Assembly: GCA_003990765.1 (NCBI GenBank)
Contig: RBNJ01000244.1
Location: forward strand, 1-35,622
Direction of reading: 5' to 3'
Origin: Jimgerdemannia flammicorona
Taxonomy: Eukaryota
DNA: 35,622 nucleotides
The notes beneath the pieces were generated by a model. The model had not been told where the DNA came from. It saw nothing but the letters and a program-made list of their open reading frames with translations, and searched no databases. This document shows positions 3,801 to 35,622 of the stretch, piece after piece. Position 1 is the first letter of the stretch. Each line of letters begins with the position of its first letter. Made by a program: the position numbers and the translations under genes.

Positions 3801-3811
3801 ATATATCTTAG

Positions 3812-3815
<4 letters not shown>
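3801..3815. repeat. 15-bp target site duplication of copy C (partner 9574-9588)
   Basis: atatatcttagcctc vs gtatatcttagcctc, one A/G mismatch. Removing C restores the copy A ORF1 reading DEIIVVLLEAKIYQLDD. Confidence 0.92.
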
Positions 3816-3851
<36 letters not shown>

Positions 3852-3934
3852 GTCACTTGGACTGCCCTTTATTACTACCATCTATAATAATAATGATACA
3901 GTATCACCCCATCCCTTCAACCAATATCCCTCAG

Positions 3935-6900
3935 ACCCATACCACTCTCCTTGATGCCCCCTTGCCTGAGAATGACCCAGTCACCCACCACCTGAATCCT
4001 CTTGTCACTTTTTCATAAAATACACTGTACCAAATCTCTGTGCCTCCCCCTCCCTGGCCCCCACCCCTGCCACCAGCCATTCAAAATATCCAGCAACAAC
4101 CATTCCCAACGTGCTATCTTGTCCCCCACCCCAATCCGCTGACCCTCCTCAAATACATGCACCCAATGTCCAGCCATCTCAACCCATATAGCCAGAGCCC
4201 AGCCAAGCATCAGCTATTCATCCCCAATCCCCCTGACCAGCCTTTGGCAGAGCTCACCCCATCTCCCCCCTACCCCTCTCTCCAGGGCTCACAGCCCCAA
4301 CTGGTCCATGATATGTCCCCAGAACACCCCCAATACATTGCACTCAGTAAGCCAATGTTCAGGCATTTGAACCACCCCTCTCTCCTGATCAATGTTGAGG
4401 CATTCTTTATACTCAAAAGTGCCCCCATCCACCAAGTGCCCAGACCAATAGTTCAACATCACATTCCACTGTAGAACTCACCACCATACCATCCAGAACT
4501 TGGGGGGCAGCCACCACATCACCTGCTTGCTCCAAAGCCAGAGTCCATTTTAGTTCCACTCCTCACCAATCCCAACCCTCTGCCAGGCTTCAGGCCAAAG
4601 GTCACCATGCAAGCCCCACAGACACTCCATACCCTCGCCAAGCTGGAAGTTCTCCACTAAGACCCCACCCAGTAGAAGTCTGTCCCACTGCTACATCTGC
4701 AGTCCCCAGTCCTCCTCTCCTTCCCACCCTGCTACCGAAGTCCAATTCTCTTAGTGCCATCCATCACTCACCACCAAAAGCCCTTATACTGCATTCACCT
4801 GCTTCCCTCCATGGCCACTATCACAAGCAGGTCACTAGAGTCTCCATGAGGGGAATACTAGACCTCTCACACCCTCTGCATGAGTGGAGCCCATTCCCAG
4901 CCCCTCAGCTCACTTGCCCTCCACATCCACCAGGCCCTCAAGCAATGAAGCCACTTGGCAAAGTCCACTAAACCCAGCCCACCTCTTTCCACTGGCAGTG
5001 TGAGTGTTTCCCAACCAATCTGACTTCGCTGGCCCCCCCAGATCCACGATTTCGCCATCTTCAACAGCCCCCTGATCACCCAAGTCGAAAAGTCCAGATG
5101 GTACCTAATATACCACAGCTTCAGTATCCAATATACATTCAGCACCATCACCCTCTCTGCCAGGGACATGTACCATCCCCCCCACTACAGGAGCACATTT
5201 CCCCACTCTAGAAGTTGCTGATCCCACCATGCTTGGGGAAGGAGAGATCCATACACCAAGAAGTAGATCCCCAAGTATCTCACTGGCTTGCCTGCTAGCA
5301 CCACTATCCCAATTATGTCACTGCTGATGATTCGCATTTGTACTAATTGAGTTTAGCACCAGAGCCCCTCTCATACCATTCAACAGACTGTTGTAATTCC
5401 TCAACATCCATCAATGAGCCCAGTCCAACCACCATATCATCTGCAAAGGCCCCCACCTTCCAATTTATCCCTAGAATGTCCAAACCCCCAATTTGATGCC
5501 AGATCCTGTCCAGTAAGGGTTCCAGGGAGAGGGCAAACAGGATGGGTGATAAAGGGTCCCCTTGTGGTACCCTATGGCTGAGTGGAAATGCCACCCCCCT
5601 GTGGCCATTAATAACCAATACAGCCTGACTATTCTCCAAAAGGCCAATTAATGACCAACGAATCCCTGGGGGAATACCAATCTGCTTCAACACTCCCTCC
5701 AGCCAAATTCTCCATACTATCATATGCCTTCTCCTGATCCAAGAAAACTAACTGGCCATCCACTCCTGTAGCCTGGGTACCTTCAATCATACCATGTACC
5801 CATGCTGTCTCATCATGGATCAACTGGCCACCAACAAATCCATGTTACTCTACACTAAGCACTTGTTGAGCAATATCTTGCAGCCTCATCACCAATATCT
5901 TTGTCACCAGCTTGTGGTCCATGTCAAGTAGCATGATCAGCTACCAGTTCTTCCAATCTTCCTGCCTCCCCTTATTCTTGTAGAGCAAGGAGACCAGCCC
6001 CAGGTGCTGGCCCCCAATCCAAGTTTCTGACCAAAGAACCTCCCCATACATATCAGCTATTTCCTCTAACACCATATCCACCCCAGTAATCTTCTTCCAA
6101 AAGTCTCAGGAGAGTCCATCCTCCCCCCTTGCTGATTGTAGCCAGGACTCTGCCAATTTCCTCTCAGCTCACCAGGTCTCCCAGAGCTCCCAGGCCCATT
6201 GCGGGGTCTGGATGCCAATCTCCCAGCTGCCTTTCAATGTCCAAAGCATCTTCCCCTCCCTCCTCTTCACTCCATAGACCCTCCCAACAGGTTTGCAGCA
6301 ATCCTAAAATTGCCAGCATCCCCACCACCAGCTCCCTATCTATATCCAGAACTCCCTCCCACTGCTGCTTTGTTCATTGTACCTGAAGCATCCATGATAG
6401 AAACCTAGTAGGCCTCTCTCCCTCCTCCAGACCTTGCCACTGGAGCTGTGCCACTATCCCATGCAGCCTCACCTCCTCCTCCTGATATAGCACTTCTTTG
6501 AGCTCCACAACTTTCTTCTGGATCCTCACAATATACCAGTCAGTCCCTCTCTATCTTCTATCACACCTGCCCATCACTCCATGAGTGGTGCCAAATGCTG
6601 CAATGCCCATAACACCCTTTACCTTTGTTGGACACCCCTTCCTTTTCCTGCCTCCCTCTGGTACTTCTGAGCATTTACCTTCAGCCTCCTCCAGCAGTCC
6701 GTAATCCCCAAGCCCTGGTCCTGCCACCTTCCAATATTCCCAATAATCTCCTTTTCCCAGTCCACCCACAAACTCCCATCCTCTAACAGAGAAGAATTTA
6801 AGTGCCAATATTCAGGCCCATCCTCATTACCCCCAAACCTCCCCCCTCCTAGCAGCCCCCAGTAGTCAGACCATGGACACCAAACTACCTCCAGTGTTGT

Positions 6901-7542
6901 CCAGACATCTACACCCCAATAATCTGCCATTACAATCCAGTCAATTCTAGAGCCCAGCCCTGCTGTCCAATGCATATAAACCTGACAATCCTCCCAAAAC
7001 CATCTCCCTGAATCCACTAGAGAACTCAACCTCTCCAACTCCAACCAGTCATCCAATCCACCACTCCTACTCTGCATTCCTCTCCCTCCATCTGTCCTGT
7101 CCATTCCCTTATCCCACACCATATCGAAGTCACCCCCTAAACAGTCCAACCCAACCTCTCCTAAGATACTGGCCTCTTTCAACCCATGGATCCAATCCAC
7201 CCACTCCCCTCTCTCAGCTGGGCAATAAATAGCCCCCACTATCAATGGGCTCTGTTCAGGCTGCCTCTACACTCCCTACACCAATCTAGACCCCCAATGT
7301 CCAATGTTCCCAATGTCCCTCATCCCTTTCCGAACAAGGATATCCACCCTCCCCATCCATACCACAGCCCCCCCCCATTCCTTGGTCCAATCCTGTAAGT
7401 CCACATCTGCCTCATAATGGATATTCTGTAACAAGAAGAGATCCACATCTAGTCCTTTTAGCCAACCAAATATGTACCCCCTCCTTGTCACTCTCTGTAA
7501 CCCATTTACATTCAAAGAAAAAATCCTGGTTGTACTGTTCAT
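3935..7542 (-). pseudogene. Copy C ORF2: APE endonuclease, reverse transcriptase, C-terminal region; stops and frameshifts; 3' limit approximate
   Basis: Motifs MNSTTRIFSLNVNGL, IYCP, GGDF, SRIDWI, WSDY, WHLNSSLL, FLDQEKAYD, VPQGDPLSPILF, AFADD, LPVERGGLGLVDF. Confidence 0.93.
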
Positions 7543-7573
7543 ATTGAAAAATGTTTACAATTGAGGTCCCAAC

Positions 7574-9490
7574 CTAGTACTCCATACTCATCTCATCCCC
7601 AGCCAGATTCAAGCACCACTCTGCTTCTAAGTCACTCTCCACAACAGCCTGAGCATCCAATGCCTCCAAGATCTCCTGACATTCCACCCCATCCACCACC
7701 TCCATCTCTGACCAGTAGTCTCTGCAGACCACACGCCACTTCTCCAATTCCTTTCTTGAGTTCCACAGGAATGCCGCCCTGTCATTTGCAATCCCCCTAA
7801 GTTCCTCCTCCCACTGATCATTGACTTGATATTCAACTGATTCCAAGAGGACAGCTAGGATCTCATTCCTCACCTTCCTCAGCATCTCCTCTCCCCAAAG
7901 GATCTCCTCCCAATGCCTCTCTTCTATAACCCTAAAGTCCTCTCCTCCTAGCTCCTCAGCCGCCACCCCTTCCAGAGTCTTCCACAGCCACTTCTCCTCA
8001 TCCACTGCCTCTGCCACACCCTGGGCAATCTGCCCCCCCTCCACCTCTTGGTCCACCAGAGCACTCCTCCTCACAGACTCATCCCACTCCTCATCTGGGA
8101 CATCCAGCAACTCCTCCTCCCCTCTCTCTCCTCCCGGGACACTATACTGAGGGTGTACTCCTTTGCTCATTTCAGTATCAGCCTCCCCACCACCTTCTCT
8201 TGCCTCTCCCAATCCACACTGAGCCCCATCTCAGGCCACTCTGCATTCCCCAGCCCAGGCACTCTCCCTTAATCCCATATTTCCACCTCCTGTGCTGCCC
8301 CCTACTCTACTTCCACCCAACATCACCAGCAGCTCCTTCTGAATTTTCCTCCCCTGCATCTTCTCTCAGGCCACCCAATCCATCCTGACCCTCTTTCCAT
8401 CCACTTCTTCCACCACTATCCTGGCCACATATACCTTCCACACTGCTCTCCTCCTCTTGACTGCCCCTTCCAGATCCTCCAGCACCTCAAGCAAGTTCTT
8501 CTCCTCCTCCAGAGTCCCCTTCACCCTCATGACCCTGCACTCCACTGGGCCCCACCTCAGTGTTGCCAGCCAGTCTCTTGTCTTCCATGTGCTCTCCTTC
8601 CCAGCCAATTGTATCCTAATATCAACATCACCAGTCCAGAGCTCGGTACCCTCCCAGACCTTGAAACCAATATCCACAAAATTCCCATATTCCTTGACTG
8701 CTTCCACAATCAACTCCCTAGCCCTCACCTTTGACACTGTTGGAAGATCCAAAACTATCAACTGCACCACTTGAGGGTCCCAGTGTATATATCTGGCCAT
8801 AGGGACCACAATCCTGCCCACTATCACCTCCTTCTCCATGGCTACCAGTAATACTTTCTCTTTCTTAAACCCCACCTTGACCTCTTCTTTCCCCTTCAAA
8901 AACTTCACTAAAGCCGCACCTTTTGCCTCCTGCACCACTAGCCCCAGGATCATCCTTGCCGTCACTGCCAAGCCCCTGAAACACATTGTGACTGTGAATT
9001 CTGACCTTGATTTCTTGAGTAATGGTACTGACACCATGCCTGTCACCCCTTCTGCCAGGTCCCCAAGCCTCATGCTTACCCCCTGTCCTGAATTAGCAGC
9101 CACTGTCACATCTGGATTTTTTGCCAGATCCCAAGTCACAGTTCCATCAACAGTCACATCTCCCACCCCTACTCTCCCTCCTCCTCTACCATCAGACACT
9201 CCCTGAGGCACTCCTCCCTGTCCTCCAGCAGTAGCTGTTGATGCCTTCCCCAGACCCAGCCAGCCATCCAGACCTGAGGCCATCCTCCCCATCTTGACCT
9301 TGTCTGTGAAAGTCGACTGCTCCCCTCCTTGCTGCCTTAAGCCATCCCTCCCTCTGCTACCAGCACCCCGGCCAGCCATCAAGGCCCCCAGCATTCTCAA
9401 ACCATTGCTCCTCCTCCCCACCTGCTACCAGCCAAAGGCACCATCACCTCCCGGGCCAGCACACTCACCAGATTGATCATTGCCATCTAT
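7574..9490 (-). pseudogene. Copy C ORF1, single frame of about 638 codons
   Basis: Track ORFs 8366-9421 and 7574-8212 share one frame. It is interrupted only by TAG 9425-27, TGA 8366-68 and TGA 8231-33. The likely start is ATA (from ATG) at 9490. Contains TFTDKVK and an RRM-like hydrophobic core. Confidence 0.85.
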
Positions 9491-9588
9491 ATTGATAGTC
9501 CTCTGTCACTGAAAATGTTGAGAAGATATTGCCAAATTCTTGTGTCACCTGAATGGTACTTGTGAAAGATGTGGTATATCTTAGCCTC

Positions 9589-10816
9589 TAGTAATACTAC
9601 TATTATCTCATCCCAGACTGACCCTCCTCTTCTACCATCTCTACATTCTCTACCATGATACTTAGTTAATATCTTCCCCCCCTCCTAGGGTCTTCTTTCT
9701 TCTCTTCTGCTCAGATACTTGCTCTTGATCCAGCATCATTAGCAGTAGTCTCTCTGGCTGCTCCTCTCCCAACTTAACTAACAGAGTCTTCTGAATACAC
9801 CTCCTCTGTGCTCTCTTCCAGACTATCCAGTCTAGGTACACCTTCTTGTCATTCATAATCTCTATAACCTCCTGGCCTCAAACTCCTTTTATGTCAATCT
9901 CCTTCTCTCCATAGCTCCAGCCAGACCCTCCAAAGTCTCAAGCAAGTCCTTTTCTTCCTCCAATGTCTCTTTCACCCTCAAGAACTTGTACTCCACAGAT
10001 CCCTATTTGAGGACCACTGACTAGTCTCTTATCTTTCTTGTATTCTTCTTATCCACCAGCTACACTCTAATGTTCATATCAAAAGTCCTAAATTTGATAT
10101 CCTCTAATCCAAAACCCAATATTTACAATTTCTCTATACTCCTTAATAGCTCTGATAATCAACCTCTTGACTATTTCCTTTGATACTATTGAAATATCCA
10201 ATACTATCAGCTATATTTCAGTATAAGTACCAGATCATAGAAATTACCACTCCCCTACCACTACTCCTTTCTCCATTACATCCAGCAGTACATCTTTCTC
10301 AAAGCCCACCTCCACTTCTTCCAGACTCTTCAAGAACTTCACTGATACTGCTCTCTTCATCTTCTGGTCCAGAAACTCCAGAAGTATTCTCACTATTACT
10401 GTGAAGCCTTGAAAACACAATATGACAGAGAATTCTAATCTTGATTTCTTAAGTAATAGTGCTACCACTAGGCCTGTTATACTGTGCCACCCCCTGTCCA
10501 GATCTATCTCCTTGCCCTTTTCAGCCTGCCCTCTAGTCCAGTTATCAGATAACTCTCCTTTACATTATCTGCAAAGCTTGTCCTCCCAGTCTCCTATCTC
10601 CCAGTACTACCTCCTTCTCTTCTTTATCCCCCAGCCAGCAAGCCGTATATGCTTCTCCCAAACTATGACTCTTTCCTATATACTGTTAGTGAAATATACT
10701 GGGGCTACCCTGCCTAGCATATATATTAGAATACTCATTATTTGCCATATTGTTAGTACCTTTTTCCAAAAATGATATCTTGAAGTTATAACCTAAATAT
10801 TACTAGAGAAAGGATG
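9589..10816 (-). mobile_element. Copy A 5' segment (5' UTR and most of ORF1, internally deleted)
   Basis: ORF1 homology (LLKKSRLEFSVILCF..VKFLKSLEEVEVGF), ATG at 10748 (MANNEYS), 5' end CATCCTTTCTC at 10816. Confidence 0.88.
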
Positions 10817-13800
10817 TCCAATCCTCTTCTCCATTTAAGACCAAAAGAGCAGCCCACTTCTTCTGAAGCTGCATCAGCCTAGCAGAGATCTAGGCTATTC
10901 TTCTTCTCTGCTGTCTTCCTTACCCTACTAGTCTCACTCTAGTAAACCCTAGCAGTCTCCTTTAACCTCACCTATTGGACACCAACTAGAGTACTCTCTG
11001 GGACCCAACAATCTACTTTCTGACTAATGCTTTCTGTTCAAGTATTATATAGCCCATTCTTAGCTAGTATAGAGGAATTGAGATACTAATGTCCAGGCTA
11101 ATCCTGACTTTCCCCAAACTGCCCCTGCCATAATAAGTCTCAATAATCTGACCATGGACACCACTCAACCTCCAGGGACTTCTAGATATCCAGACCCCAG
11201 TAATTGGCTATTAGTACTCAGTTAATCCTAATCCCCAGACCACTCACCCAATGGAAATAGACCCTTCTATCTTTCCACATTACTTGATCAGTATCCACCA
11301 AAGAACTGAGTTACTCTACCTCCTCCTAACCCTCTCAGCTACTACTCTTGCTCTCTATATTCTTACCTCTATCTGTCCTGTCCAAATATGTCAAATGAAT
11401 CATATTGAAGTCTCTCCCAAATACCTCCACTCCTGCCTCTACAAGTACTCCACTATTCAAAAGACCCTCAATCTACTCTATATACTTACTCCTAACTATA
11501 GGACAGTAATAAGATCTAACTACAATTGACTCTCATCTAGGCTGATATCACTCTCTCTAAACCAATTGATCACTCAAGTTCCTGCTACTATATATTTCAC
11601 TTCATCCTTTCTATATCAGTAGTTCAGCCATTCTATTCCAAACTGCAGCTCTACCCTATTTCTTCATCTACTCCTATTGATTAAAATTCTTATTATATTA
11701 TATATCCTACAGAAAAAAGAGTTCAGCCTCTAATCTCTTTTAAGTAAAAATATTAGGCTGTCTCCCAGAACCCCTCAGGCTATTTACATTCAATAAAAAA
11801 ATATTAGTTATACTATTTATAGAGAATAATGTTGAAATAGATGTATTCTTTTTACAGCTCTATATTTACCTCCTCTCTCATCAAGTCCAATATACATAGC
11901 AGCAGCCTCCCCCCCCCTCAATCTACTTAGCTTCCAGTCTAACCAAAAGCTCATTGCTATATTATCCTTCAACTATATCTCCTTCTGATCTCCAATTAAG
12001 CCTCTTGCTTGATTTCCAGTCTATGTCTCTGCTCTAACCAGAAAACTATATACTCTCTAGTAGCTATCACCATCTCTATCTCTCTTACTTCATCTACTAT
12101 ATAACTCACCTCATCTAGAAATACAGCCAGTTTCTCTGTCACCAGAGCCTCTACAATACTCTCTCTCTGCTATACTTTGTCCAATACTTCTAACTGATAA
12201 CTTACAAGTCTAAATCCTCTACTCTTTAGCTACTAAGTTATTTATCACTCAGTACATCCACTGTAGATCTTCAATCTCCTGGCTTCTAAGAGTCATCAGG
12301 CAGCTGACCCCAAGTATCATAATATCTGCCCCAGTACTTGCAGACTCATCCCACTCCTCCTCAGAGATATCTACTAGCTCATCCTCCACAATCTCAACCA
12401 TCTGCCTCCTACTCACAATCTCAGATACTCCAAATTGAACATGGTGAGTCCCCAGCATCTCCATATTTTCACCAGCCTTTGGTCATATACCTCTAGCCTG
12501 CCTTCTTATTAGTGCTCCCAAACGAGTCAAATCAATTCGAATTGAATCGAATTGAGGGTCTAATTCGAACCCTAATTTTCAAAATACAATAACTCAGCAT
12601 AAACTCATCGAAATCTAGCATACTTTAGCTTGTTAGAATCATATTACTACAGTGAATCTACCAAGCTAAAATATGTTAAATTTGGATGAGGTTTCGTCGA
12701 GTTATTACATTTTGAAAATTAAGGTTTAAATTGAACTTCAAATCGAATTGGACCTTTGATTCGATTTGATTCGATTTGATTCGATTTGTTGGGAGCACTA
12801 CTTCTTATATTCTTACTCTCCTCTTATATTTCTAGTATAGAGTTTCTAATCTCTTGTCTCCTGACTCCAACCTCCAGTTTTTGCACTCCTGCCCACCTCC
12901 TCATTAGCCCAAATACTCTCTTAAGTACCCCCAACTATCTTATCCAAACTGGACAACAGCTTCTCCTTCTCCTTCAAACTAGCCTGCAACTCCCTTTGCC
13001 TTTTATATCTCTGAGCTCTCTTCTACTGCCTCTTATATATCTGAATATACTTTCTATCCACTACCTCTAAGTGTGTTAAGTCTACATAAGTCTGCCATAC
13101 CTTAGCCCACCTCTCTACTACCCAACTGAGCTCCACCAGTATCTCTATCAGATTCTCCTCCTTCTTTATACTCTCCTTCACTCTCATAAATACCTCCCTC
13201 ATCAATACTGAGGGCCAGTCTCTCAGCTTCCCCAAAGCCTCCTTTCCAGCTAGCTGGAGTCTGATATCCACCTCTTCTGTTCTGAACAAAGTCCCCTCTC
13301 AGACCTAAAAATAAATATTGACTACCTTGTAATTCTCTGTCATAACCTCCTCTACCCTCCTCCTTATCTCAATCATCATCACTATAGACACCCCCTTTAA
13401 CAGTAGCTAGACTATCTAGGGTCTCATCTTTGATAATGAGCTATCAAAACCACAATCTCACCTATAGTCAACCTTACCTTCAATATCTCCTCTAAGGGAG
13501 CAGTCTCCTCAAAGCCCACTTTTACTCTCTCAAGACTCTTCAAGAACTTCACTGAGGTAGCTCTAGCCATCTATATCAAGAGCAGCCCCAGAACCAACTT
13601 CACTATTACTATTAACCCCCAGAAGCACAGTATGACTTTAAACAATGAGATCAATTTCTTGAGTAATAGGGCCACTATCAGATCTGTTACACTATCAGCC
13701 AGATCTCCCTGGTCCTTCTAGTCTCTCTGCCTAGTGCCACTATCATCTATTATATTACTTTTTTTGTCTTAATTCCCCATCATACTATTATTTATAGTTA

Positions 13801-14095
13801 CTTCACTACTCCTAGCTATAGCTCCTCCTGCCCCTATACTTGTTCTCCTAGACAAAGGACCTTCTGCCCTCCTCAGAGTAGTCTTGTCTTTCCTCTCAGC
13901 TTTGCTAGTCTGATCACTCACCAGCAATCCACCCTCCTTTACCTTGTCAGTAAAGCTTAGGGGCTCAGATCCTCCCCCATTTCCACCAGACACTGGTTCC
14001 TCTCCAGAGCTCTTCCTGTTCTTCACATCTCCAAAAGAGTATATCTTCAGGCTATAACCCCTCTCTATATATTTTTAGCTAAATACCCCAGATCT
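10817..14095 (-). mobile_element. LINE copy B (ORF1 11852-14095, start of ORF2 10817-11820); host of copy A and MITE 1; 5' UTR missing
   Basis: SFTDKVK (13769-14026), DIRLQLAGK..DWP, LVDISEEEWDESAS, APE remnants. Homology to E stops at agatct about 14095. Confidence 0.88.
12510..12800. mobile_element. hAT-type MITE copy 1 (291 bp)
   Basis: Perfect 12-bp TIR TAGTGCTCCCAA/TTGGGAGCACTA, 8-bp TSD cttcttat (12502-09, 12801-08), subterminal AATCG/CGATT repeats, non-coding. Confidence 0.92.
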
Positions 14096-15432
14096 AAATT
14101 AGATGAAATTGATCAAATATATCTAGCTTTCAATACTAAGATTATTTATAAGTCAGATAAGATAAATATAGTAAGCAATACTTTATCAAGAAGGCCTGAT
14201 CCTTGTGTCATCAAGATGACCTCAGACCAAACTCTTTTAGATGAATAAAAAAAAGAATATTACCAGGATCTAGTTATAAAGAAAATCCTTATAAGTCTAT
14301 CAAAAGAATATTAGATCACTGATAGAATTATATACAAGAATAACCAAATATATATCTCAAATTCCAACAATCTTCACTTCAAGATTCTGAAGAAAATCTA
14401 TAACTTCTCTCTTACTAGTTATATAGAATCTTAGAAAACTATTCATAATATTTATTATTATTTCTTCTAGTCTATAATGAATTAAGACATTAAGAAATAT
14501 ATATCTATCTATATTACTGCCAAAAGAATAAGATATTAAGATTATAGCTATATAGTTTACTCAGTAAGTTATAATAAACTTTGTTGTCTAACTATCTAAG
14601 ATATCTTAAGAAAATGATATCATCATTATCTTTGAGGACTATCTCACTAAGACTATTAAGTTATAGACAACCAAACTAATGAAACTACCCCTGATACCAT
14701 CAAAATATTCTTCAAGATAATCAGATTATAAATAGTGAAGAAGAAATAAATTTGATAAGTTATTTCTTATAAATAAGATAACTGAGAATAATATCTTATC
14801 CTGTAGAGTTCACCTATAATAACTCAGTATAAGCCTCAATAGGCTTAATATCTTTTAAATTACTATATAGTCAAGATATGCAAAATTCATTAAGCCTACT
14901 TACTAAGTTAGTAAAGAACTATCTAACATTTCTACTATTAAAGATCTTATTAATAATACAACTTCAATAATTTAAGTTATTAAAGATAATCTACTTAAGG
15001 CTTCGATATTGTAAGTTAAATATACTAATACTAGAAGTTAAGAGATCAAATTCAAAATTGGTGATTAAGTACTCATCTATTACAAATCTCAATCTAATAT
15101 TCAAAATTATCTGCTCTCCTAAGAAATAAGATATATTAGTCTCTATAAGAGTATCTCTAGTAATAAATAAGTTAATACTACTATAGACTGTTTATATATA
15201 TCTTATCTTCTATATCTCTTTATTCAAGCCATACTATAATAGTCTATATAAGTACCCAAACTAGACTTTTCAGCTATCAGTACCTCTTTAGATTTATAGT
15301 CATACTAAGTATAAAGTTGATAAATATATATATTATAATTATATTATAAGTAGACTATCCTAAATATAATAGTACTTGGGAATCTATTAGAAATCTCAAA
15401 AACACTCAATGAGCTCTTTATAAATATGAATA
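14096..15432 (+). pseudogene. Decayed Ty3/gypsy (chromovirus) pol 3' part: end of RNase H, integrase, chromodomain
   Basis: Hand translation gives KSDKINIVSNTLSRRPD (about 14150-14200), IIIFEDYLTK, VEFTYNNSV*ASIGLISFKLLYSQD (about 14805-14880), EIKFKIGD*VLI, and NSTWESIRNLKN (about 15370-15405, chromodomain). Confidence 0.85.
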
Positions 15433-15983: not shown

Positions 15984-15998
15984 GAGATTTTTTCTATA
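15984..15998. repeat. 15-bp TSD of copy D (partner 21884-21898)
   Basis: gagattttttctata vs gagattttttccata, one T/C mismatch. Confidence 0.92.
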
Positions 15999-16081
15999 CA
16001 TACCTTGCTCTAGTACAATTCATGTTACACTAACTTCAAGCAATAGTTTCCAACACAACTCAGAGAAAAAATACTATTACA

Positions 16082-21821: not shown

Positions 21822-21886
<65 letters not shown>

Positions 21887-23105: not shown

Positions 23106-23120
23106 GAGGTACTGTGGCTA
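23106..23120. repeat. 15-bp TSD of copy F (partner 29053-29067)
   Basis: gaggtactgtggcta vs gaggtgctgtggcta, one A/G mismatch. Confidence 0.92.
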
Positions 23121-23205
23121 CAAGCATCTTTCTCAGCTAACATTTACATTATACATACTTTATAACATACTCTCAAGTCATTTATTAGAGAAAGGTGATA
23201 AGAAA

Positions 23206-25230
23206 ATGGCAATCAACAAGTATTCTGGGGTGCATACTGGGTAGGGCAGCCCAAGTGTACTCAACTGACAGCAGGTGGGGAGAGGTCCTGGTCTGGGGGG
23301 TGACATGAGAGAGCTGTTGGCAGGAGGATGAGGAGGAGGTGGAGGCAGCAGTGGAGGACAGGGGTCTGGGAGGGCAAGCTTTGCAGAGATGGTGAAGGGG
23401 AGGCAGCAGATGATAGGGCTGGAGGGTAGGCTGAGAAAAGGCAAGGAGACAGAGATGATGACAGTTTGTGGGAGAGTAGCACTTGGGGGTGAGGGCAGTG
23501 GAACTGGGGGAGTAGTAGCTGGGGGGGGTGTGATGGCTGATGGTGACAGGACTGCCAATCTGGAATAAAATCTATATGTGACAGCTGATAGCACAGCTGA
23601 GCAACTGAGGCTTGGAAGGCAGGGAGATTTGGCAGATGGTGTAATAGGCTTGGCAGTAGCATCATTACTCAAGAAATTGATCTCGGCATTTGCAGTGACA
23701 TTGTGCTTCTGGGGCCAGATAGTGATGGTGAAAATAGTACTAGGGCTTATTGCTAAGCAGGTGGCTGGAGCAGCATCTGTGAAGTTCCTGAAGGGATTGA
23801 AGGAAGTAGAGGTGGGTTTTGAGGAGGCTGAACCCCTGGAGGAAGTGCTGAAGATTGGATTGATTATTGGGAAGATGTGTGTCCCGATAGTGCACTGTCT
23901 GAAATGGGACCCCAGGGTGGTCCAACTGCTAGTGAAAGGAGTGCCCATGGTGATGGCAGTAGAGATGAGAAGAAGAGTTGAGGAGGTTATGGCAGAGTAT
24001 AGCAAGGTAGTAGATATTAGGTTCAGAATCTGGGAAGGGATCTCACTCAGGACTGGGGATGTGGATGTGCAGATTCAGCTGGCAGGGAAATAAGCTACAG
24101 AGAAGACAAGGGACTGGCCTTCAGTGATGATCTGGGGGGTGACCTTATGCAAGGTAACAAGGTTGAAAGAGAGTAAGGAGGAGGAGGAAGACTTGCTGGA
24201 GGCACTGGAAGAGATGAGTGGAGCAGTGGAGTAGCAGGCAAAGGCTTGGAGGTCCTTTGTGGAGTCGACACACTTGGAGGTAGTGGATGGGAAGAGGATC
24301 AGAGTGGACAAGGGGCAATAGGAAAAAGCTCAGAGCTATAAATGCCAGAAGGAGTTACTGGCTAAGATGGAGAGTCAACTACTGAAGGAGGCTGGTAGAA
24401 TGGTGGAACCAGGGGGTGCCAAGGTGAGTGTCTGGGCTGGCAAGAAGGGTGGGAGTGCAGGGGAAGGAACTGAGGAGGACAGGAAAGCAGCTAGTGGTGA
24501 CCCATATGCTGATGGTATGTTCAAGGTCTGGGAAGAGGACTGAGAGAAATTGCCTACCTCTACTCCTCTCATCAGACAAGGGCTGGCTTACTATAGCAGG
24601 GCAGGAGAGGATGTACCAATGAAGGGGGCTCAGCAAGTGCAATTTGGCATGCCTGAGGTAGCAAATGGGGGACAGGTAGTGGTGGTTGAAGAGGAGAAAT
24701 TAGTGGATATCCCAGAGGTGTGGAATGAGGCTGTGAGTACCAGAGCTGATATCACAATGTTAGATGGTGGAAGACTGGTGATGTCAGGAGGGAAGGAGGT
24801 GGGAAATCTACTTTGGATGTGCAGGATGATGAATAACCTGGTAGCTGAAGAGCTCAGGAAGGTGGACTTGAGGGTGATGAGTGATGAGCATTGGGCATGG
24901 GTATTATAGAGAGATAGTGTGGAGTTGGCATTGAAGGCAGAGATCCTTGTAGTTTATCTAGAGGAGGAAGGGTATGAGGTGGATAAGGAGTGAGAGGCCA
25001 AACTAGCAGGGGTTGCCAGTGAGAGGGTCAAGTACTGTTGGGCCAAGCAACATAAGTTGCAGCTCTGGCAGGAGGTATGCCTGGAATACTGAGAGGAGTT
25101 TGAGGAGAAGGCAGATGGAGAGATGAATGAGCTGTTGGTTGAATTGAAGGCTCAGAGGGCTGAAGGGGAGGCAGTGACTGCAGAATATAATCTGGACATA
25201 GTATAGGAAGAGATGAACTTGGAGCAGTAG
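23206..25230 (+). pseudogene. Copy F ORF1 (disrupted)
   Basis: ATG at 23206 (MAINKYS), SFAEMVK, LLKKLISAFAVTLCF, WDPRVVQLLVKGVP, acidic C-terminus. Confidence 0.88.
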
Positions 25231-25263
25231 GGATGGACTAGATAAAAAACACTATACTTCAAT

Positions 25264-28200
25264 ATGAATAGTACAATCAACATTTTTTCACTGAACATAA
25301 ATGGGTTATGGAGTACTTCTCAATGAAGGAACATTTTTACCTGGCTGAAGAGATTGGAGGCCAATCTCTTTCTCTTGCAGGATGTCCAGTATAATGATGA
25401 TTTGGATAAACTGGAATGGACAAAGAAATGGGGAGGTGAGGCAGTTTGGATGAGCAAGGTTGGGATTCTGATATGGAAAGGCAGAGGGGAGATAAGGGAT
25501 ATGAAGAGCTGGGGAAATTGACTGGTCTGGGGTGAGTGGATATGTACTGGATGGGAGCCAATTATAGTGAGATCTTGTTACTGCCCTGCTATATGGGGTG
25601 AGCATATGGATGGGGTGAAGGGTCTTCAAGAGAGTGGGACACTCACAGAGGCTGGAGTAGATGTACTGGGTGGAGACTTTAATATGGTTTGAGAGGTACT
25701 GTTAGATAGAACAGATGGAGGACAAGGAGTTGAGGGTCAGAGTGGAGGGCTGGTGGCATGGGAGGAAGTAGAAAGGCTGAGTACTCTGGTGGATGTAGGT
25801 AGGAAGTGCTGGAGAGTTAGGAGGATATACATACATTTGACAGGAGGCTTGGGGATGAGAATTGATTGGATTCTGATAGCCAGCTATTGGGGTTTGGATG
25901 TTTGAAGATCACTAGAGGTGGAATGGTGTCCTTGGTCAGATCATTGGGGGATTCTAGGACAGGGTCAGTTTCAGGGGAGTGTGGATGGGCCTGGACATTG
26001 GCACCTCAATTCCTCCTTGTTAGATGATAGGATCTCATGGGATGGGTGGACTGCAGACATTTAGCTATAGGTAGAGTATTGGAGACAGGAAGGTACCTTA
26101 GTGGGTATTTGGTAGATGAGGATGAAGGAGATGACCAAGACATACTGGAGTGAGGCTGGTAAGGAGACTGGGAAACAGAGGAGGTGAAAGGTGAGATGTG
26201 CTTCCAGTAGACTGTCTAGGCTCTTAGGCAATTGGGTGAGACTGGTGACATTGGAGGGGGAGGAGAATTGGAGGTCTATAAGGGTGAAAAAGGAGGTTGG
26301 TGAACTACAACAGGTGCTGTGGGAGGAGGAAGAAGCGAGGGTGAAGGGCTTGGCAGCTAGGCTATGTTGGTAGGGTTTGGAAGAAGGGGAGAGGCCCTCT
26401 AAGTTTATCACAAGGGCCCTTTGGGCAAGGAGAGTGCAACAAAGGTAGGAGGGGGTACTCGACTCTGACAGTATTCTGGTCCATGGTATTTAAGACATTC
26501 TGGGATTTTTAAAGGAGCACTGGAGTGGATTGTAGAGTGAGGAGGAGGGTGGGGTAGATGCTGATATGATTGGCCATGGATTAGAAGATTAGCAACCCCT
26601 ACAATTAGATGGGATGGGTGACTTGGTTTTGCTAATCCAAGAGGAGGAGATCTGCCAGGTTCTCACTGTGACAATGCCAGATATAGTATCTGGCAAAGAT
26701 GGTTTGCCCTGGGATTTCTAGAAGAAGATGGTCAGGATCCCAGGAGTACTGGGGGAGATGACAGTATTGTGTGATCTTATTTTACAAACAGAGAGATGGG
26801 TGGGGGAACAGGATCTGGGGTTAGTGATATTGCTCTATAAGAACAAAGGAAGGTAAGAGAAATGGAAGAAATGGAGGCCAATTATGCTCTTGGATATGGA
26901 CAGAAAGTTGGTTACTAAGGTAGTAGGTGCAAGACTACAAGTGGTAGTATAGCAAATCTTGGGCATTGAGCAGAGGGGCTTTGTAGGGGAACAGCTCATT
27001 AGGGATGGTATGGCCTGGATACCAGGAGTTATTGAAGGGGCACAAGCTTGTAGATTGGATGGGTGCCTGGTCTTCTTGGACCAGGAGAAGGCTTATAACT
27101 GGGTGAGGCAGGTCTGGCTGGCAAAGGTTTTAGATAGGGCTGGGGTTCTGCACCAGTTCTGGTCAGTGATGGTCAGTCCACTAGAAGGGAGTAGGGTGGT
27201 GCTAATGTGTAATGGACATTGAGGGGTGGATTTTTCCCTGGGTAGGGGGGTGCCCCAAGGGGACCCATTGACCCCCATTTTGTATGCCCTTTTCCTAGAA
27301 CTACTACTGAATAGAATCAGGCGGAAAATAGTGGGGCTCTCTATCTTTAGCATTGGGTGGAAGGTAGGGGCCTTTGTGGATGATATGGTGGTCAGACTGG
27401 GATCAATTGCTGATGTTGAGGAGCTTAAGAAGACAGTGGAGGGGTATGAGGAGAACTCTGAGGTGAGACTTAATTGGCATAAGTGTGAAACAATGGTGTT
27501 AGGCAATAGTCTGATGAGTGGGGAGGTTATTGGAACAATTGTCTCTGCTGGTGAGGCAGTGTGGTACTTGGGTATCTATCTATCAGTGTATGGATCAGTA
27601 CTACCTAGGCTTTGGTGTGAGCAGTGGGTTGGCATCTGGGGGGAGGCCCTGTGGAGTTGGGGGGGCTGTCAATTGTCCCTGACATAGCATGTTATAATTT
27701 TGAACATTTACTAGTAACTGAAGTTGTGATATCTGGCATATCATCTGGACTTCCCATCCTGGGTGATGAAGTGGCTGATGAAGCTTGCCAAGGGATGGAT
27801 CTGGGCTGGAAGGAGGAGTCAGATAAGCTGGGAGGTCTTGTCCTTACCAGTGGCAAGTGGTGGTTGACTTTTCAAAGAGGCTGCACTGCTTGAGGGTTTG
27901 GTGATGAAGAGAGCTGTGGAATTGAGCGGGGGTGATTGAGTTCCCATATTGCAGAAAGTTTGGGAGAGGCAGTCCTTGCCAAGAAGCTCAACTGGCAATC
28001 TCCTTTCTCTGGTTAGACTTCAGAACACTAATCATTTGCGATATAAAGGCTTCTGGTGAGAGATAGCAGAGGGGGTGCACCACATTGGGATCCATTGGCA
28101 GGGAATGAAGGAGAGGAGGATTGGGACCCAGTGATGTGGAGATAGGACTGGGTGCTACTGGGCAGCATCCCTTTACTTGAGTTTGACATTAGTAATGGGA

Positions 28201-28903
28201 TAGCCTGCCAGAGGGAACTGGACCAGGATCTGTGGCCCAGTGGTTGGCAAGGTATAGGAATTGGCAAGGAGTGGGACTGGCATAGCATTTGGACATGGAG
28301 TGCCAAGGTGAGAAGATGGATGCTGCCGAAGTCCTGGGTGACTTGGTGGGACATGCTGAGGAGGAATGTCATGCCCAATTACCACTTGGGTCATCTTGTC
28401 AAGGGGGGTTATTTTCACTGTAAGGAGTGCTATAATGTAGGACAGGAAGGGGGTTATGTACAGATGCCTGAACATTGGCTAGGAGAGTGTGAGGTACTTA
28501 GTAACTTTTGGCAGACTGTTGGGGATCATTTAGGAGTAAGGTGTAGGGGAACTAGTATGTGGGGGTGGTGGGAGGTTTTGAGAGACAGACTGGTGGGGGG
28601 GGGTGAGAAAGGAATGGCTCATGCTTGGCTGGGCTCTGGCCATTTGGGTTGGGTTGGCTGACCACTGGTTTTTGTTTTTGAGGATAGGAGGAGACTGGGC
28701 TTAGAGGTCTGGCTACAGCAGTGGCATGGCCTTATGGAGGATACCTTGACAGGCTGGTGACTTGGTTGGGGGATACAGGGGGGCTGGAGGCATTATCTGG
28801 TAGAGAAAATTTGTAGGCAGAGTGGGGGAAGAGTAGGAGTAGTGGGAGAGAAGGTGGTCTTTACTTGGGTTGGGGTAGGGAGAGACCCCCCTATGGGGAT
28901 TAG
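25264..28903 (+). pseudogene. Copy F ORF2 (APE-RT-Cys/His finger), disrupted; 3' limit approximate
   Basis: MNSTINIFSLNINGL, LLQDV, GGDFN, WSDH, FLDQEKAY, GVPQGDPL, AFVDD, CKECYNVGQEGGYVQMPEHWLGEC. Confidence 0.9.
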
Positions 28904-28966
28904 ATAGTGGGAGAAAGACTGTATATTTAACAATAGAATGATAATAAATGGCAGAGTCCAAGTAAC

Positions 28967-29056
<90 letters not shown>

Positions 29057-29067
29057 TGCTGTGGCTA

Positions 29068-30758
29068 GGGATGGGACTACTGATGACAGTATGATGGGAA
29101 ATCAGAAAAAAAAAAGAGATGTGATAGCTGTTGATGAAGTGGGGCAGGGGTTCCTGATGCAGAAGGGGGATCTGGCTGATAGTATAACAGGACTGGCAGT
29201 TACACCATTACTCAGGAAATTGATCTCGGAGTTTGTAGTGACACTGTGCTTTCAAGACTTAGTGGTGACAGTAAGGGTGGTCTTGGGGTTTATCTTGAAG
29301 CAGGTGGCTGGGACTACATCAGTGAAGTTCCTAAAGGGTCTAGAGAGGGTTGAGGTGGGCTTTGAGGAGGCAGGCCTCCTGGAAGAGACTCTGAAGACTG
29401 GAGTGGTAGTTGGGAAGGTAGTGGTCCCCATAGTATGCTTCGTGAGGTGAGACCCCAGAGTGGTGCAGCTGCTGGTAAAGGGGGTGCCTATGGTGATAAA
29501 GAAGGAGGCTAGGAGGAGGGTGAAGGAGGTGATGGTAGAGTATGGTAATGTGGTGGATGTCAGTTTCCAGGTATGGGAGGGGACCTCCATTAGGACAGAT
29601 AATATGGATGTGAGGATTAGACTGACTGGAAGAGAGGCCATAGGAAAGATGAGCAACTGGCCCTTGGTGTTAATGTGGGGGGCTTTAGTCTGTAAGGTGT
29701 CAAGGATGAGAGGGAGTGAAGTGGAGGAAGAGGACTTGTTAGAGGCTCTGGAGGAGTACCATTGAGAGGAGGGTGAAGGCTTGGAAATTGTATGAGGAGT
29801 CGACACATCTGGAGATTGTTGATGAGAAGTATATTGGCACTGACAAGAGACAGTGGGAGAGGGCTCAAGGGCACAGGATGGAGAGGGAGTTATTGGTGAG
29901 CATGGAAGTTGGGGGTAAGATGACAACTATGGGCCCTGTGAAGTCTGGGGGAGTGGTGGCAAGTAACTGGGCTAGCCAGAGAGGAGGTGATAGGGAGAAG
30001 GGCCTGGAAGGAGCTGAGAAGGTGCCACCCAAGGACCCATTTGCTGATGGAACTTTCAAGGTCTGGGACACAGTTGTGGATAATACTCCCTCTCTGATCA
30101 GGAGGGGTCCAGCAGCAAGAGGTTGGGCAGCAGTGGACAAGCTGATACAGGGTGCTCAAAAGGTACACTTTGGGGTTCCTGATATAGCAAAGGGTGGACG
30201 GATGGTAGCAGTTGGTGAGAACAAGCTGGTGGATGTCCCTGAGGAGGGATAGGATGAGACTGGCAGTGTGGGGCTGATACCACAATGCTGGATGCAGGAA
30301 GGCCTGGGATACCAGGAGGAAAGAAGGTAGAGAACCTGCTGTGGATGAGCAAGGTGATAGATAACCTCATAGCTAAGGAGTTGGGGGAAGTGGACCTGTG
30401 AGTGATGAGTGAGGAGCACTAGGCAGGGATTCTGCAGAGAGAGGGGGTGGTGGGGGCATGGAAGGCAGAGATTCATGTGATTTTCCTGAAGGAGGAGGGC
30501 TATGAGATTAATAAGGAGAGGGAGGCAGAGCTTGCAGTTGTTGCTGGTGAGTGGGCTGCCTACTGTTGGGCTGAGCAGCATGGTTTGCAGCTCTGGCAGG
30601 AGGCTTGTCTGAAATATTGTGAGGACTTCAAGAAAAAGGAGAATGGGGTAATGGCTGAACTGCAGGAAGGGTTGGATGCACAGACTGCTGAGGAGAAGGT
30701 GTTGGCTGCTGAACATGACTTGGACTTGATACAGGAGGAGTTGAATGTGGATTTGTAG
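29068..30758 (+). pseudogene. Copy E ORF1, main part (5' part at about 22365-22662 and 23095-23120)
   Basis: Colinear with ORF1 of D: LLRKLISEFVVTLCF ... VLAAEHDLDLIQEELNVDL. Confidence 0.88.
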
Positions 30759-33316
30759 AGGCTGCAATTGATAATTAATATTATTCCTAATAAACAGTAC
30801 AACTAACATTTTCTCTCTGAATGTGAATAGATTGCAGAGTACTGGGCAGCATAAGAACATTTTTACTTTGCTTAAGACTCTGGAGGCTGATCTCTTCTTA
30901 TTGCAGGATGTATAGTGTGAGGGTGAGGAGGATCAAGTAGAGTGGACTAGAGAATGGGGAGGGAATACTGCTTGGATTGGCAAAGTGGCGATTCTGGTGA
31001 GGAAGGGTAGAGGAGATTTGGGTGGAATCAGAAGCTGGGGTGACCACTTAGTATGGGGAGTATGGCATAGACCTGGGTGGGAATCTGTTAAGATTGGCTC
31101 CTACAACTGCCCTGTGGTTAGAGGTGAGCAGATTGAGTGGATTAAGGACCTTTTGGAGGAGGGCATCCTCTTGGAGGAGGGCATCAATATTCTGGGAGGT
31201 GACTTTAATATGGTGTGGGATCCACAGCTGAATAGAACTGATGGCAGGAGGAGTGTGGGTGGGAGGAGTGGTGGTCTGTATAAGTGGGAGGAGGCAGAGA
31301 ACCTTAGCTCCTTGAGGGATATGGAGAGGATATGGTTGGGTGACAGGAGGGTCTATACATACTGGGTGAACGGGCTGGGTATGAGAATTGACTGGATTCT
31401 GACAGCTGAATGTTGGGGAGTTGATGTTTGGAGGACTCTAGAGGTGGAGTGGTGCCCATGGTATGATCACTGGGAGCTGTTGGAGCAGGAACAGTTTGGG
31501 GGGAGTGAAGATGGCCCTGGACATTGGTATCTTAACTCCTCTCTGCTGGATGAGAAGGGGTTGTGGGACCCATGGGTGGAGGAAATCTAGGAGAAGATCA
31601 CCTACTAGATATATGAGGGTTTATCTGTGGGGGACTGCTGGATGCAGTTGAAGGAGGCTGCAAGGGTATATTGGGGAGAAGCTGGTAGAGAGGCTGGGAG
31701 GCAGAGAAGAAAGTGAGTGAGGTGTACTTCTAATAGGTTGATTAGATTGTAGATGAAATATATTGATTTGCTTTCTTCTGAAGGAGTGGAGGATTGGAGA
31801 TTGATGAGGGTGAAATTAGAGGTAGTGGAGTTGCAACAGATATTGAGAGAAGAGGAGGAGATCTGTTTGAAAGGAATGGCTGCCAGATTGCAGTGGCAGG
31901 GGCTTAAAGAGGGTAAGAGGCCTACAAGTTACTTATCTAGGCTTCTTGAAGTAAGGAGGGTGCAAAATTAATGGGATGGGGCCTTTGATGTTGAGGGGGA
32001 CATGGTGTGTTACATGCAACAGATCTTGGGGGTATTGAAGGAGTAATGGAGAGGGCTGTAAAGTGAGAAGAAAGGGGGTGCAGATGGGGAGGCAATTGAT
32101 GATACACTGCAGAAGTGGATTCCACCACAAGTAGAGGGGCTTGGTGACTTGATTGAATTAGTCCAAGAGGGGGAGATCAAGAGTGTCCTTGTAGTGACCA
32201 AGCTTGGGACAGTGCTAGGAGAAGATGGGTTACCTTGGGACTTTTGAAAGAAGATTGCAAAGGTCCCTGGAGTATTGGGTGAGATGGCTGCTCTCTGTAG
32301 CCATGTTCTTCTGAATGGTGAGTGGGTTGGAGAGCAGGCCTTGGGGCTGGTGGCCTTATTGTATAAAGACAAGAGGAGGAGGGAGGACTGGAAGAACTGG
32401 AGACCAATTATATTCCTAGATATGGACAGGAAGATGGTGACTAAGGTGATTGTCGCAAGGCTATAAAAAGTTGCCCAACAGGTGCTGGGTGAGGAGCAGT
32501 GGGGCTTTGTTAGAGGTAGGCTAATAAGGGATGGGACTGCATGGGTGCATGGCATCATTGAAGGAGCCTGGGCCTGTGGACTGGATGGTAGATTGGTCTT
32601 TTTGGACCAGGAAAAGGCCTATAACTGTGTGCAGCAGGTTTGGCTCGGCAAGATACTAGATAGAATTGATGTTCCCCTATAATTTCGGACTTCTATATTG
32701 AATCTGTTGGAGGGCAGTCAGGTAGTGCTGATGTGTAATAGTTACTGAGATCTGGCATTTCCATTAGAAAGGGGAGTTCCTCAGAGAGACCCTCTGTCCC
32801 CTATTCTTTATACTCTTTCATTAGAACCTTTGATGGAAAGGATTTGCTTGAAGGTAGCAGAGCTCTCTATATATAGTATAGTGTGGAAGGTGGAAGCCTT
32901 TGCTGATGACATAGTAGTTGGACTTGGTTCTGTAGCAGATGTTGAGGTACTTAAGGAGACAGTGGAATAGTATGAGGCACACTCTGGGGTAAAGCTCAAC
33001 TGGTATAAGTGTGAGACAATAGTGCTAGGGAATGGACTAGTAGGTGGGGATGTCATTGGAACAGTTGTCCCTACTAGTGAGGTGGTGCAGTATCTGGGCA
33101 TCTTCCTTTCTGTATATGGATCTGTCTTACCACAAGTGTGGTGGGCAAGCAGAGTGACCATTTGGAGAGAAGTCCTTCGAGGATTGAGGGGCCACCATAT
33201 CTCTCTAGTAGGGTGGGTGTCAATTCTGAATGTTTACTGGTTCCCCAAGCTATGGTATATGACATATCACCTAGACTTCCCAGCTTGGGTGGTGAAGAGG
33301 CTGATGAAGATGGCTA

Positions 33317-33331
33317 GAGATTGGATTTGGG
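33317..33331. repeat. 15-bp TSD of the 1.2-kb insert (partner 34536-34550)
   Basis: gagattggatttggg vs gagattgaatttgga, two G/A mismatches. Confidence 0.88.
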
Positions 33332-34535
33332 CAGTCCCTTTCTCTGCTACCTTACTGGTTACAAGATTTGGTAGGCAACCTTCTGAGTCCCCTTTTCCCT
33401 ATTATTACCCCTCTACCTTAGGTTGGTTTGCTGTGCCTGTATGGGCATGGTGGGAGGAGGGCAATGGTGATGAGTTGCCCCTTTATCAGTGTCTAATCAG
33501 TGTCTTCTCCACTTTTTTGCAGTTTCTGGTGTCTTCAGCTGCATCTGGAGTGTATCTGTTTTGGTGCGGTGCCTTCTTCCTTTTGCTGTCATCAACAAGG
33601 TACAGCCTTGGTGTGTCATGGATTCCATAGAGAGTTGGCCAACCTTGGGCATCAAGTGCTCAGTATAGGTTACCTGCAGGTCCTTGGTGCCTGTGGTGGG
33701 GCCCTCTGGCTTTGGCAAGCTTCTCAGTGAGCATAGTTCTGATGTAGGTGACTATTTTTCAGATGTTGTTGGGATGGAAGGGGAGATGGCTGTCACAGAT
33801 AGGAGGATGGGTGATAACAGTGAACCAGTGGGGTGCTAGGCTAGGAGTGGTCATTGGGGCTAGGGCAGACAATATTTTGGTGGGGCCTTTTGATTGACTG
33901 GTGGGGGTGGGGTAGTGCAGGGGCTGGCATCCTGGCTGTACCCAACTGGAACTGAGAGCTGATATGGTAATACAATTGAGGCCTACAGGCTTGGGGAGTG
34001 GGGCCTTCATCATTTGGCAGTACCCAACTAGAACTGGGAGCTAACATAGCAATATGATCAAGGCCCACAGGCTTGGAGAGTGGGAGTGGGGTCTTTTCAG
34101 GCCCTAGCCCATGTGTAAGTCCTTTGAGGAAGGTGCTACATGTAAGTCCTTTACTCACCCACTTTGAATCTACTCTGCTCTCTGTTGGTTGGTTGGGAGG
34201 TTTTTTCTTTACCTTGGGCTTTCTTTTGTGGTTCAGGGGGCTATTCTTTATTCAGTTCTGGTGCTGCTAGATCTGACGCATAGGTGTGCTCTTGCATGTA
34301 AATGATGATCTAGTCCTAGTGAGCAGACAAGTCTAGTATATTTCATGTGGGTCAACATAGCCAGTGTTTGACAGACATAGCTGGAGCAGTGGGACTGCTG
34401 GACAATTTAGTAGCCTAGGTTAATGGTGGGATATTGTTCAGTGGATGGTGGGGGAGGGTTTTGGCCAATATAGTCTAGGTTCTCTTCTAATAAAAATCTG
34501 CAGGACTATGAGTCCATTAAATAAAAAAAAAAAAA
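33332..34535 (+). mobile_element. 1204-bp polyadenylated non-autonomous retroposon (SINE-like or LINE parasite), body unrelated to LINE ORFs
   Basis: 15-bp TSD, 5' CAGTCCCTTTCTC, AATAAA 34489-94, poly(A) 34523-34535. E ORF2 homology stops at 33331 and resumes at 34551. Confidence 0.85.
33933..34096. repeat. Two-copy 82-bp tandem repeat inside the insert
   Basis: gtacccaact at 33938 and 34020; the units differ almost only by transitions. Confidence 0.85.
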
Positions 34536-35622
34536 GAGATTGAATTTGGATAGAGAGGAGGTCCCAGATCAGTTGGGATACTCTTGCAACACTGGTAATT
34601 AGAGAAGGTCTGGGCCTTGTGGATTTCCCTAAGAGATTGCACTATCTGCAAGCCTGGTGGTTGAAGAGAGCTTTTGAACTGCAGGGAGGGAGTTGGGTAC
34701 TACTATTGTAGAAGATGTGGGAGATGAGATTCTCCCCTCAAGGGTTCTTGGGAGATTTGCTCTCTTTGATTGGGCTGAATAGCAGTCATTAGATGCAGTT
34801 TAAGGGCTTTTGGTGGGGGGTAGTGGATGGAGCACAGAATTGGCCTGCACTAGAGAGGTAATGAGGGGGAGGTAATGTGGGGTCCCAATATGTGGTGATG
34901 GGACAGACTTCTTCTGGGGGGTGCTCTACTGACTGAGTTTGATATTAGAGATGGAGTGGAGTGTCAGCAGGGTCTTGGTCAGAATTTTTGGCCAAGTGGC
35001 TGGCAGGTGGCAAGGATTGGCAAGGAGTGGGACTGGGCAGAGGTCTGATTGTGGAGTGCTGAGATATAGAGGTGGCTTCCTCCCAAGTTCTGGGTGGTAT
35101 GGTGGAGAATACTGAGGAGGAATGTTATATTGAATTTCCATACAGAACATCTAGTGGAAGGCAGACAATTAGATTGTGAAGAGTGTTATAATATAGGGCA
35201 AGTTGGGGGATTTGTGCAGATGCCAGAACATTGGCTGGGAGAGTGTGAGGTTTTGGTGGACTTTTGGATTGAAGTAGGGAATAGGCTAGGTATAAAGAGG
35301 AGGCCAGATTGTATGAGAGGCTACTGGAACTCAACTAGTAGGTAGTGTGGACAATAGTTGGCTCACTGTGGAGTGGGTGTTAGCAGTAAAGGTAGGACTG
35401 ACTGATTATTAGCTCTTTGTTTTTAAAGAGGGGTAATAGATGAGTTTATAGAAGAAGTTATTATGGTGGGAGGGGTTGTTGGGGGATCTGATGACTGAGT
35501 GATGGGTGGGTTGGGGCTACCAGGGTGGGTAACATTGTGGTCTGGTGGAGAAGATCTGTGAACAAAGTAGTGGGTGGATGGAGATGGTGTTAGACAGAGT
35601 GGCCTTTCATTGAGTAGAGGTG

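Follow-up and report, generated by a model that had tools for sequence, protein, structure and literature searches.

A nest of decayed L1/Tx1-group LINEs with a probable TR^GAGR motif at the first nick in a contig of Jimgerdemannia flammicorona

The bases read by the endonuclease of a long interspersed nuclear element (LINE), together with the placement of the second cut, decide where the element lands. The nick site of the L1 endonuclease (L1-EN) is given as TTTTT/AA (PMC8565326), whilst target-site duplications (TSDs) of the L1 clade are described as peaking at 13-15 bp in human, cow, opossum and zebrafish, with the second nick of human L1 placed ~15 bp downstream and a sharp TSD peak in its full-length copies (PMC4245944). 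Elements of the Tx1 clade are described as target-specific: Kibi enters (TC)n, Koshi enters (TTC)n and the crocodilian Tx1 families enter (TTCC)n/(TTTC)n; an expected TSD of 16 bp is given for a short interspersed nuclear element (SINE) family whose target preference is linked to Tx1 (PMC4494074). In the ingi clade, a constant 12-bp TSD accompanies a conserved pattern at the first nick, which was read as an endonuclease binding site and is common to non-autonomous partners (PMC3820030). Here we analyse a stretch of 35,622 nucleotides from Jimgerdemannia flammicorona (contig RBNJ01000244.1, assembly GCA_003990765.1; hereafter the window), in which self-comparison, Pfam scans and junction read-outs revealed seven nested poly(A)-type retroelements: six LINE copies, A to F, and one short non-autonomous insert (Table 1). 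An original prediction had proposed for these elements a fixed 15-bp TSD and the target motif TR^GAGR, read on the element strand with ^ marking the start of the TSD.

With moderate confidence in the reading as a whole, we consider that the window holds nested, decayed copies of a single LINE lineage of the L1/Tx1 group plus its short non-autonomous partner, and that the apurinic/apyrimidinic endonuclease (APE) of this lineage would nick at TR^GAGR; the 15-bp stagger would be ordinary, and the preference for a GAG nick unusual when set against the T-rich site that pairs with poly(A). Judged by their divergence, the copies are different sublineages and no recent duplicates, because pairwise identity among them is 50-74% with many transversions. 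Point mutation has turned them into pseudogenes, in which 617-863 codons hold 13-21 in-frame stops and frameshifts are few; the sense frames stay closed under every alternative genetic code tried.

Direct repeats of at least 15 bp flank all four complete insertions (C, D, F and the insert), and a regular-expression search of the window recovered every 15-mer quoted in the original prediction at its place. The 3' TSD copy directly abuts the poly(A) tail in each case (33 A in C, 59 in D, 82 in F and 13 in the insert), and the 5' TSD copy stands directly before an element start of the form CA..CTTTCTC. The two members of each pair agree at 13-14 of 15 positions (55/60 overall), the five mismatches all being C/T or A/G. 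These repeats are true duplications of single-copy host sequence, because homologous copies hold the 15 nt once: the F site is present once in D, the insert site once in D and once in F (the comparison covers these two sites; the region where C lies in A aligns poorly). The start of copy A was mapped independently of any motif, through the homology of its host B to D, E and F, which continues through GATTGGA and then ends, and this places the A/B junction exactly at 10816/10817. A common 5' end, CA(0-4 nt)C(A)TCTTTCTC, is reached by six of the seven copies, with starts at 10816, 9573, 15999, 22283, 23121 and 33332. Truncation at the 5' end, which is usual for L1, affects at most one copy, B, which appears truncated at its junction with a gypsy-like pol remnant near 14098-14124. 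The 5' junctions are not perfectly uniform, because copy F carries four extra bases, CAAG, ahead of the element core CATCTTTC, and the same core begins in copy C right after a CA.

Over the five sites of A, C, D, F and the insert, position -2 is T, position -1 a purine, positions +1 to +3 GAG and position +4 a purine in 5/5 cases, with no further invariant column between -10 and +15 and none around the second cut. The proposed TR^GAGR is thus present at C, D, F and the insert, so that the non-autonomous element carries it too, and in copy A TG^GAGA precedes the start by exactly 15 nt. Within the window this is far beyond chance: in 200,000 Monte Carlo draws of five random sites from the same hosts, with no motif assumed, a run of at least three invariant columns in a 27-nt window arose with a chance of 1e-5 on a random strand and 1.5e-5 on the observed strand. 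GAGR accounts for 3.1-3.5% of positions on the sense strands of the host LINEs and for 0.30-0.40% on their antisense strands (sense ~9-fold commoner), and for 0.45% on the strand that D entered in G-poor gypsy DNA; the frequency of TRGAGR at the predicted 15-nt offset of copy A is 0.76%. Guest and host share one orientation in all four nested insertions (C in A, A in B, F in E and the insert in E), which fits the strand asymmetry of GAGR, as a strand-specific purine motif predicts. The tally is five of six readable 5' sides, B being left unscored with a junction known to within ~25 nt. The target motif is probably real for this lineage; for the "ancestral TG^GAGR" form that had also been put forward, five sites are too few to judge.

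The mechanism that we propose is that all elements were inserted by target-primed reverse transcription. The APE would nick the bottom strand at 5'-YCTC^YA-3', which is TR^GAGR on the element strand; the first nick is placed between -1 and +1 of the bottom strand because the tail abuts the first TSD base. Polyadenylated RNA would then be copied from the nicked 3' end, the top strand would be cut ~15 bp downstream, after TSD base 15 and with no visible sequence requirement, and repair would leave a TSD of ~15 bp beginning with GAGR. It would be the APE itself that reads the motif. The second cut seems to be set by distance and not by sequence, because no conservation is seen around the second nick, and initiation would proceed without the pairing of a T-tract primer with the tail that is described for L1, because poly(A) offers no pairing to a primer that ends in CTC.

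Several observations weigh against this reading, and the last of the steps above is itself one of them, since a non-pairing CTC primer departs from the L1 model. There are just five sites, all from a single region of 35 kb, and for four of them the target was a G/A-rich LINE sense strand. Copy E falls outside the motif, as the original prediction had conceded: its 5' flank at 22268-22282 reads ac^AAGGAACCATAGTAG before the start at 22283, and to reconcile this ac^AAGG with the motif the GAGR part needs at least one G-to-A change, which leaves the TR part unexplained. An alternative start of copy E 8 nt upstream, giving aa^GAAG, was tried and fits no better. Finally, for two of the four TSDs a reading beyond 15 bp is possible: 16 bp for the insert, with an A before the 5' copy, and 17-18 bp for C, with CA after both copies (the CA after which its core begins) and an A before the 5' copy.

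The last point bears directly on the claim of a fixed 15-bp TSD, of which one part stands and the other does not. The minimum is 15 bp in 4/4 pairs and the length is exactly 15 bp on both sides in D and F; that it is fixed is not shown by four pairs of which two are readable as longer. Nor does the contrast drawn earlier with a "variable" L1 TSD agree with the lengths described in PMC4245944, where L1-clade TSDs peak at 13-15 bp and sharply so in full-length copies. Because the L1 clade already peaks there, the ~15-bp stagger is the ordinary L1-clade norm and no new ruler, and with four cases it is indistinguishable from L1-clade behaviour. The stronger form of the claim, in which a strict ruler makes every insertion exactly 15 bp, unlike ordinary L1, we regard as unlikely. 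The unambiguous lengths of D and F and the 15-bp minimum would suit such a ruler, as would the motif of copy A exactly 15 nt before its start, and a constant length is known elsewhere, at 12 bp in the ingi clade (PMC3820030); set against this are a sample of four in which 17-18 bp is an equally good reading for C, as is 16 bp for the insert, a copy E that has no motif at 15 nt, and the sharp peak near 15 bp that is already described for full-length L1 (PMC4245944).

The elements might instead home to older copies of their own kind, guided by chromatin or RNA-DNA pairing or concentrated by a regional hot spot, so that GAGR would be a by-product of G-rich sense strands. LINE-rich nests are common, and four of the five mapped targets here are LINE copies of the same group, all co-oriented with their guests; yet the four insertions struck their host elements at different points, only ~1.5e-5 of draws of random positions from those sense strands produced the motif run, and D entered unrelated AT-rich DNA and still did so at ttg^GAGA, which makes homing an improbable explanation. 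A small-sample coincidence in G/A-rich hosts, with the motif chosen after the data had been seen, is very improbable: GAGR does already fill 3.1-3.5% of host sense positions and the sites number only five with copy E failing, but the motif-free Monte Carlo on the same hosts and strands returns 1e-5 to 1.5e-5, D entered GAGA where GAGR is 0.45% of positions, and the motif of A sits at its predicted 15-nt offset at a TRGAGR frequency of 0.76%.

The longer elements had been taken for LINEs with an APE and a reverse transcriptase (RT), of the L1/Tx1 group, and Pfam domains, tblastn and a profile match to L1 ORF2p all agree with this. The APE that the L1 group requires is represented by PF03372 (Exo_endo_phos; E-value 1.5e-8) in 30916-31587, RVT_1 (PF00078) is matched on the sense strand in pieces of C, D, E and F, and the RT box AFADDMVV (FADD) is present. 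By tblastn, a 1202-aa metagenome protein comprising APE, RT and zf-RVT aligned as a single in-frame high-scoring segment pair of ~2.5 kb in each of copies E and F (E-value 3e-84). A profile made from the APE piece of the window and eight full-length relatives, which is dominated by these distant relatives, themselves tied to the window via tblastn, matched human L1 ORF2p (8sxt) collinearly over residues 7-1161 (E-value 5e-170), L1-EN (1vyb; E-value 1e-28) as the best match among solved LINE endonucleases, and R2 proteins over the RT only (E-value 1e-62). At the same C-terminal place D, F and E carry C-x2-C-x14-H-x4-C, where Pfam makes no PF13966 (zf-RVT) call and where the relatives carry PF13966; a zinc-knuckle regular expression with narrow spacing found no match, and wider spacing yields this pattern. 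All five visible 3' ends have TAATAAA ~20 nt before the tail, and the tails of C, D, F and the insert comprise 13-82 A. Membership of these elements in the L1/Tx1 group of APE-type LINEs is supported by this set of similarities.

Set beside the L1 clade, the lineage has the same collinearity of ORF2p from the APE to the C-terminal region, the same FADD, AATAAA and poly(A), and a TSD of ~15 bp. It differs at the first nick, where TR^GAGR is found at 5/5 sites and the T-rich TT^AAAA at 0/5, in the 5' end common to six of seven copies, and in its first open reading frame (ORF1), for which the Pfam scan returned no family and no Transposase_22-type ORF1 was detected; identity to the full-length proteins found is at most 39%. 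For the Tx1 clade (Tx1, Keno, Kibi, Koshi and the crocodilian Tx1 families), the target-specific families of PMC4494074 bear out the earlier remark that several of its elements have sequence-specific APEs, and GAGR resembles a short piece of a purine/pyrimidine target such as the (TC)n of Kibi, which is (GA)n on the other strand. On the protein side the sole hint toward Tx1 is that the best named relatives are fish proteins automatically named "Transposon TX1", at 33-34% identity. Unlike in that clade, the five targets here are unrelated, have only six positions in common and are neither a repeat nor an RNA gene; no single target recurs, the sites lying in LINE bodies and AT-rich gypsy DNA, and the tail is poly(A) and not a target-like repeat. 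The ingi/L1Tc clade of trypanosomatids offers an analogy in its logic of a constant-size TSD and a pattern on the side of the nick; the TSD is 12 bp there and at least 15 bp here, the proteins here are L1-like, and no membership is implied. Our literature searches found no LINE with a GAG target, which does not show that there is none in print.

Next after the fish proteins come named relatives from Rhizopus and from agarics, the named relatives overall being 28-34% identical, and the only close relatives, at 62-75% identity, are 11 (2 + 9) metagenome protein fragments. For the APE piece, the ESM Atlas returned only generic eukaryotic Exo_endo_phos clusters and a single-sequence PDB search gave no useful match. 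A 3'-end pattern (TAATAAA, AGTC..ACT.T, A6) that matches A, C, D and F in the window had no match in metagenome_contigs, genome_contigs or viral_contigs, an RT alignment search gave no confirmed locus in genome_contigs and viral_contigs, and the exact left end of the window had no match in metagenome_contigs. One soil metagenome run shares 5% of the words of the window: a 161-bp contig covers 1062-1222 with two differences and 46 bases fall on 2897-2942, the left edge of the window having no coverage in that run. Because this soil contig differs at just two bases, the source organism or a very close relative occurs in soil. It is possible, and we offer it tentatively, that the window samples an otherwise unsampled L1/Tx1-group lineage of a soil eukaryote in which 5'-YCTC^YA-3' would have replaced the T-rich nick site with poly(A) kept, which would prime without pairing and insert almost always at full length, and whose near-invariant 15-bp stagger would be common to its partner.

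That partner, the 1.2-kb insert, has no coding capacity. It opens with the LINE-like start CAGTCCCTTTCTC and ends with AATAAA, a GAGTCCA block and an A13 tail, resembling the LINEs only over its first ~13 nt and last ~40 nt; between these lie the two 70-nt units of an internal direct repeat (33933-34002 and 34015-34084, 81% identical). Insert and LINEs have in common the start, AATAAA, GAGTCCA, the tail, the TSD length and the motif, and by this likeness the insert was probably mobilised by the same proteins as the LINEs.

Table 1. Positions of the retroelement copies and of their target-site duplications in the window.
Feature	Position	Strand	Details
Copy A, 3' part	1..3800	-	Tail cut by window edge, TTTTTT at 1-6
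Copy A, 5' part	9589..10816	-	Start CATCCTTTCTC at 10816; A is interrupted by C and sits inside B
Copy C	3816..9573	-	Full-length LINE, 5758 bp, inside A; poly(A) seen as poly(T) at 3816-3848; RVT_1 in 5346-5747
Copy B	10832..14097 (about)	-	Host of A; 3' part left of window
Copy D	15999..21883	+	Full-length LINE, 5885 bp; poly(A) 21825-21883; in AT-rich gypsy-derived DNA
Copy E	22283..35622	+	Own pieces 22283-23120, 29068-33331 and 34551-35622; interrupted by F and the insert; 3' end beyond window
Copy F	23121..29052	+	Full-length LINE, 5932 bp, inside E; poly(A) 28971-29052
Insert	33332..34535	+	Non-coding, non-autonomous element of 1204 bp inside E
C 3' TSD copy	3801..3815	-	GAGGCTAAGATATAT
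C 5' TSD copy	9574..9588	-	GAGGCTAAGATATAC, cta before it
Candidate A 5' TSD	10817..10831	-	GAGAAGAGGATTGGA, atg before it; partner outside window
D 5' TSD	15984..15998	+	GAGATTTTTTCTATA, ttg before it
D 3' TSD	21884..21898	+	GAGATTTTTTCCATA
F 5' TSD	23106..23120	+	GAGGTACTGTGGCTA, ctg before it
F 3' TSD	29053..29067	+	GAGGTGCTGTGGCTA
Insert 5' TSD	33317..33331	+	GAGATTGGATTTGGG, cta before it
Insert 3' TSD	34536..34550	+	GAGATTGAATTTGGA

The LINE sense strands are G-rich and C-poor (G 29-38%, C 11-13%, GC skew about +/-0.45), the skew flips with element orientation near 15-16 kb, and W and G are abundant in the encoded proteins. Compared with C, D, E and F, the older hosts A and B are richer in A and poorer in G. 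CpG is nearly absent, with an observed/expected ratio of 0.00-0.10 in 8/8 regions measured, and the poly(A) tails of 59 and 82 nt are uninterrupted. This loss of CpG, the C/T and A/G nature of the TSD mismatches and the uninterrupted long tails together suggest that C:G to T:A changes dominate the mutation spectrum, through methylation-linked deamination or a process resembling repeat-induced point mutation (RIP).

The gypsy-like pol remnant lies on the + strand at 14098-15983 and from 21899 to about 22265; D entered its AT-rich tail, and B and E probably landed in the remnant as well. It retains the RNase H/integrase boundary motif LSRRPD at 14168-14203 and a decayed integrase zinc-finger region, and its GC content is ~23%, with G at just 9%. 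A palindromic element of ~250-270 bp resembling a miniature inverted-repeat transposable element (MITE) occurs at about 12520-12790 in B and at 22735-23008 in E, at different positions in the two LINE hosts; its arms of 80-131 nt are ~80% complementary, and the two copies are 88% identical, far above the identity of their hosts. An internal A-run is conserved between D, where it is A8 (16445-16452, ~450 nt into the element) followed by GGAGATGTGATAGCTG, and E, where it is A10 (29106-29115) followed by GAGATGTGATAGCTG.

Since the clade routinely shows a 15-bp stagger, the gain on that side is modest, and to establish the GAG preference as a property of the family needs more copies. If true, a GAG preference combined with a poly(A) tail would provide a data point that lies between L1, loosely targeted to T-rich sites, and the strictly targeted Tx1 clade, and a natural case in which the use of poly(A) is separated from T-tract priming within the L1 group. 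The lineage could then be a possible intermediate between loosely targeted L1 and the microsatellite-specific Tx1 families, and the head-to-tail pile-up of its copies would follow from a G-rich sense strand that is itself full of target sites.

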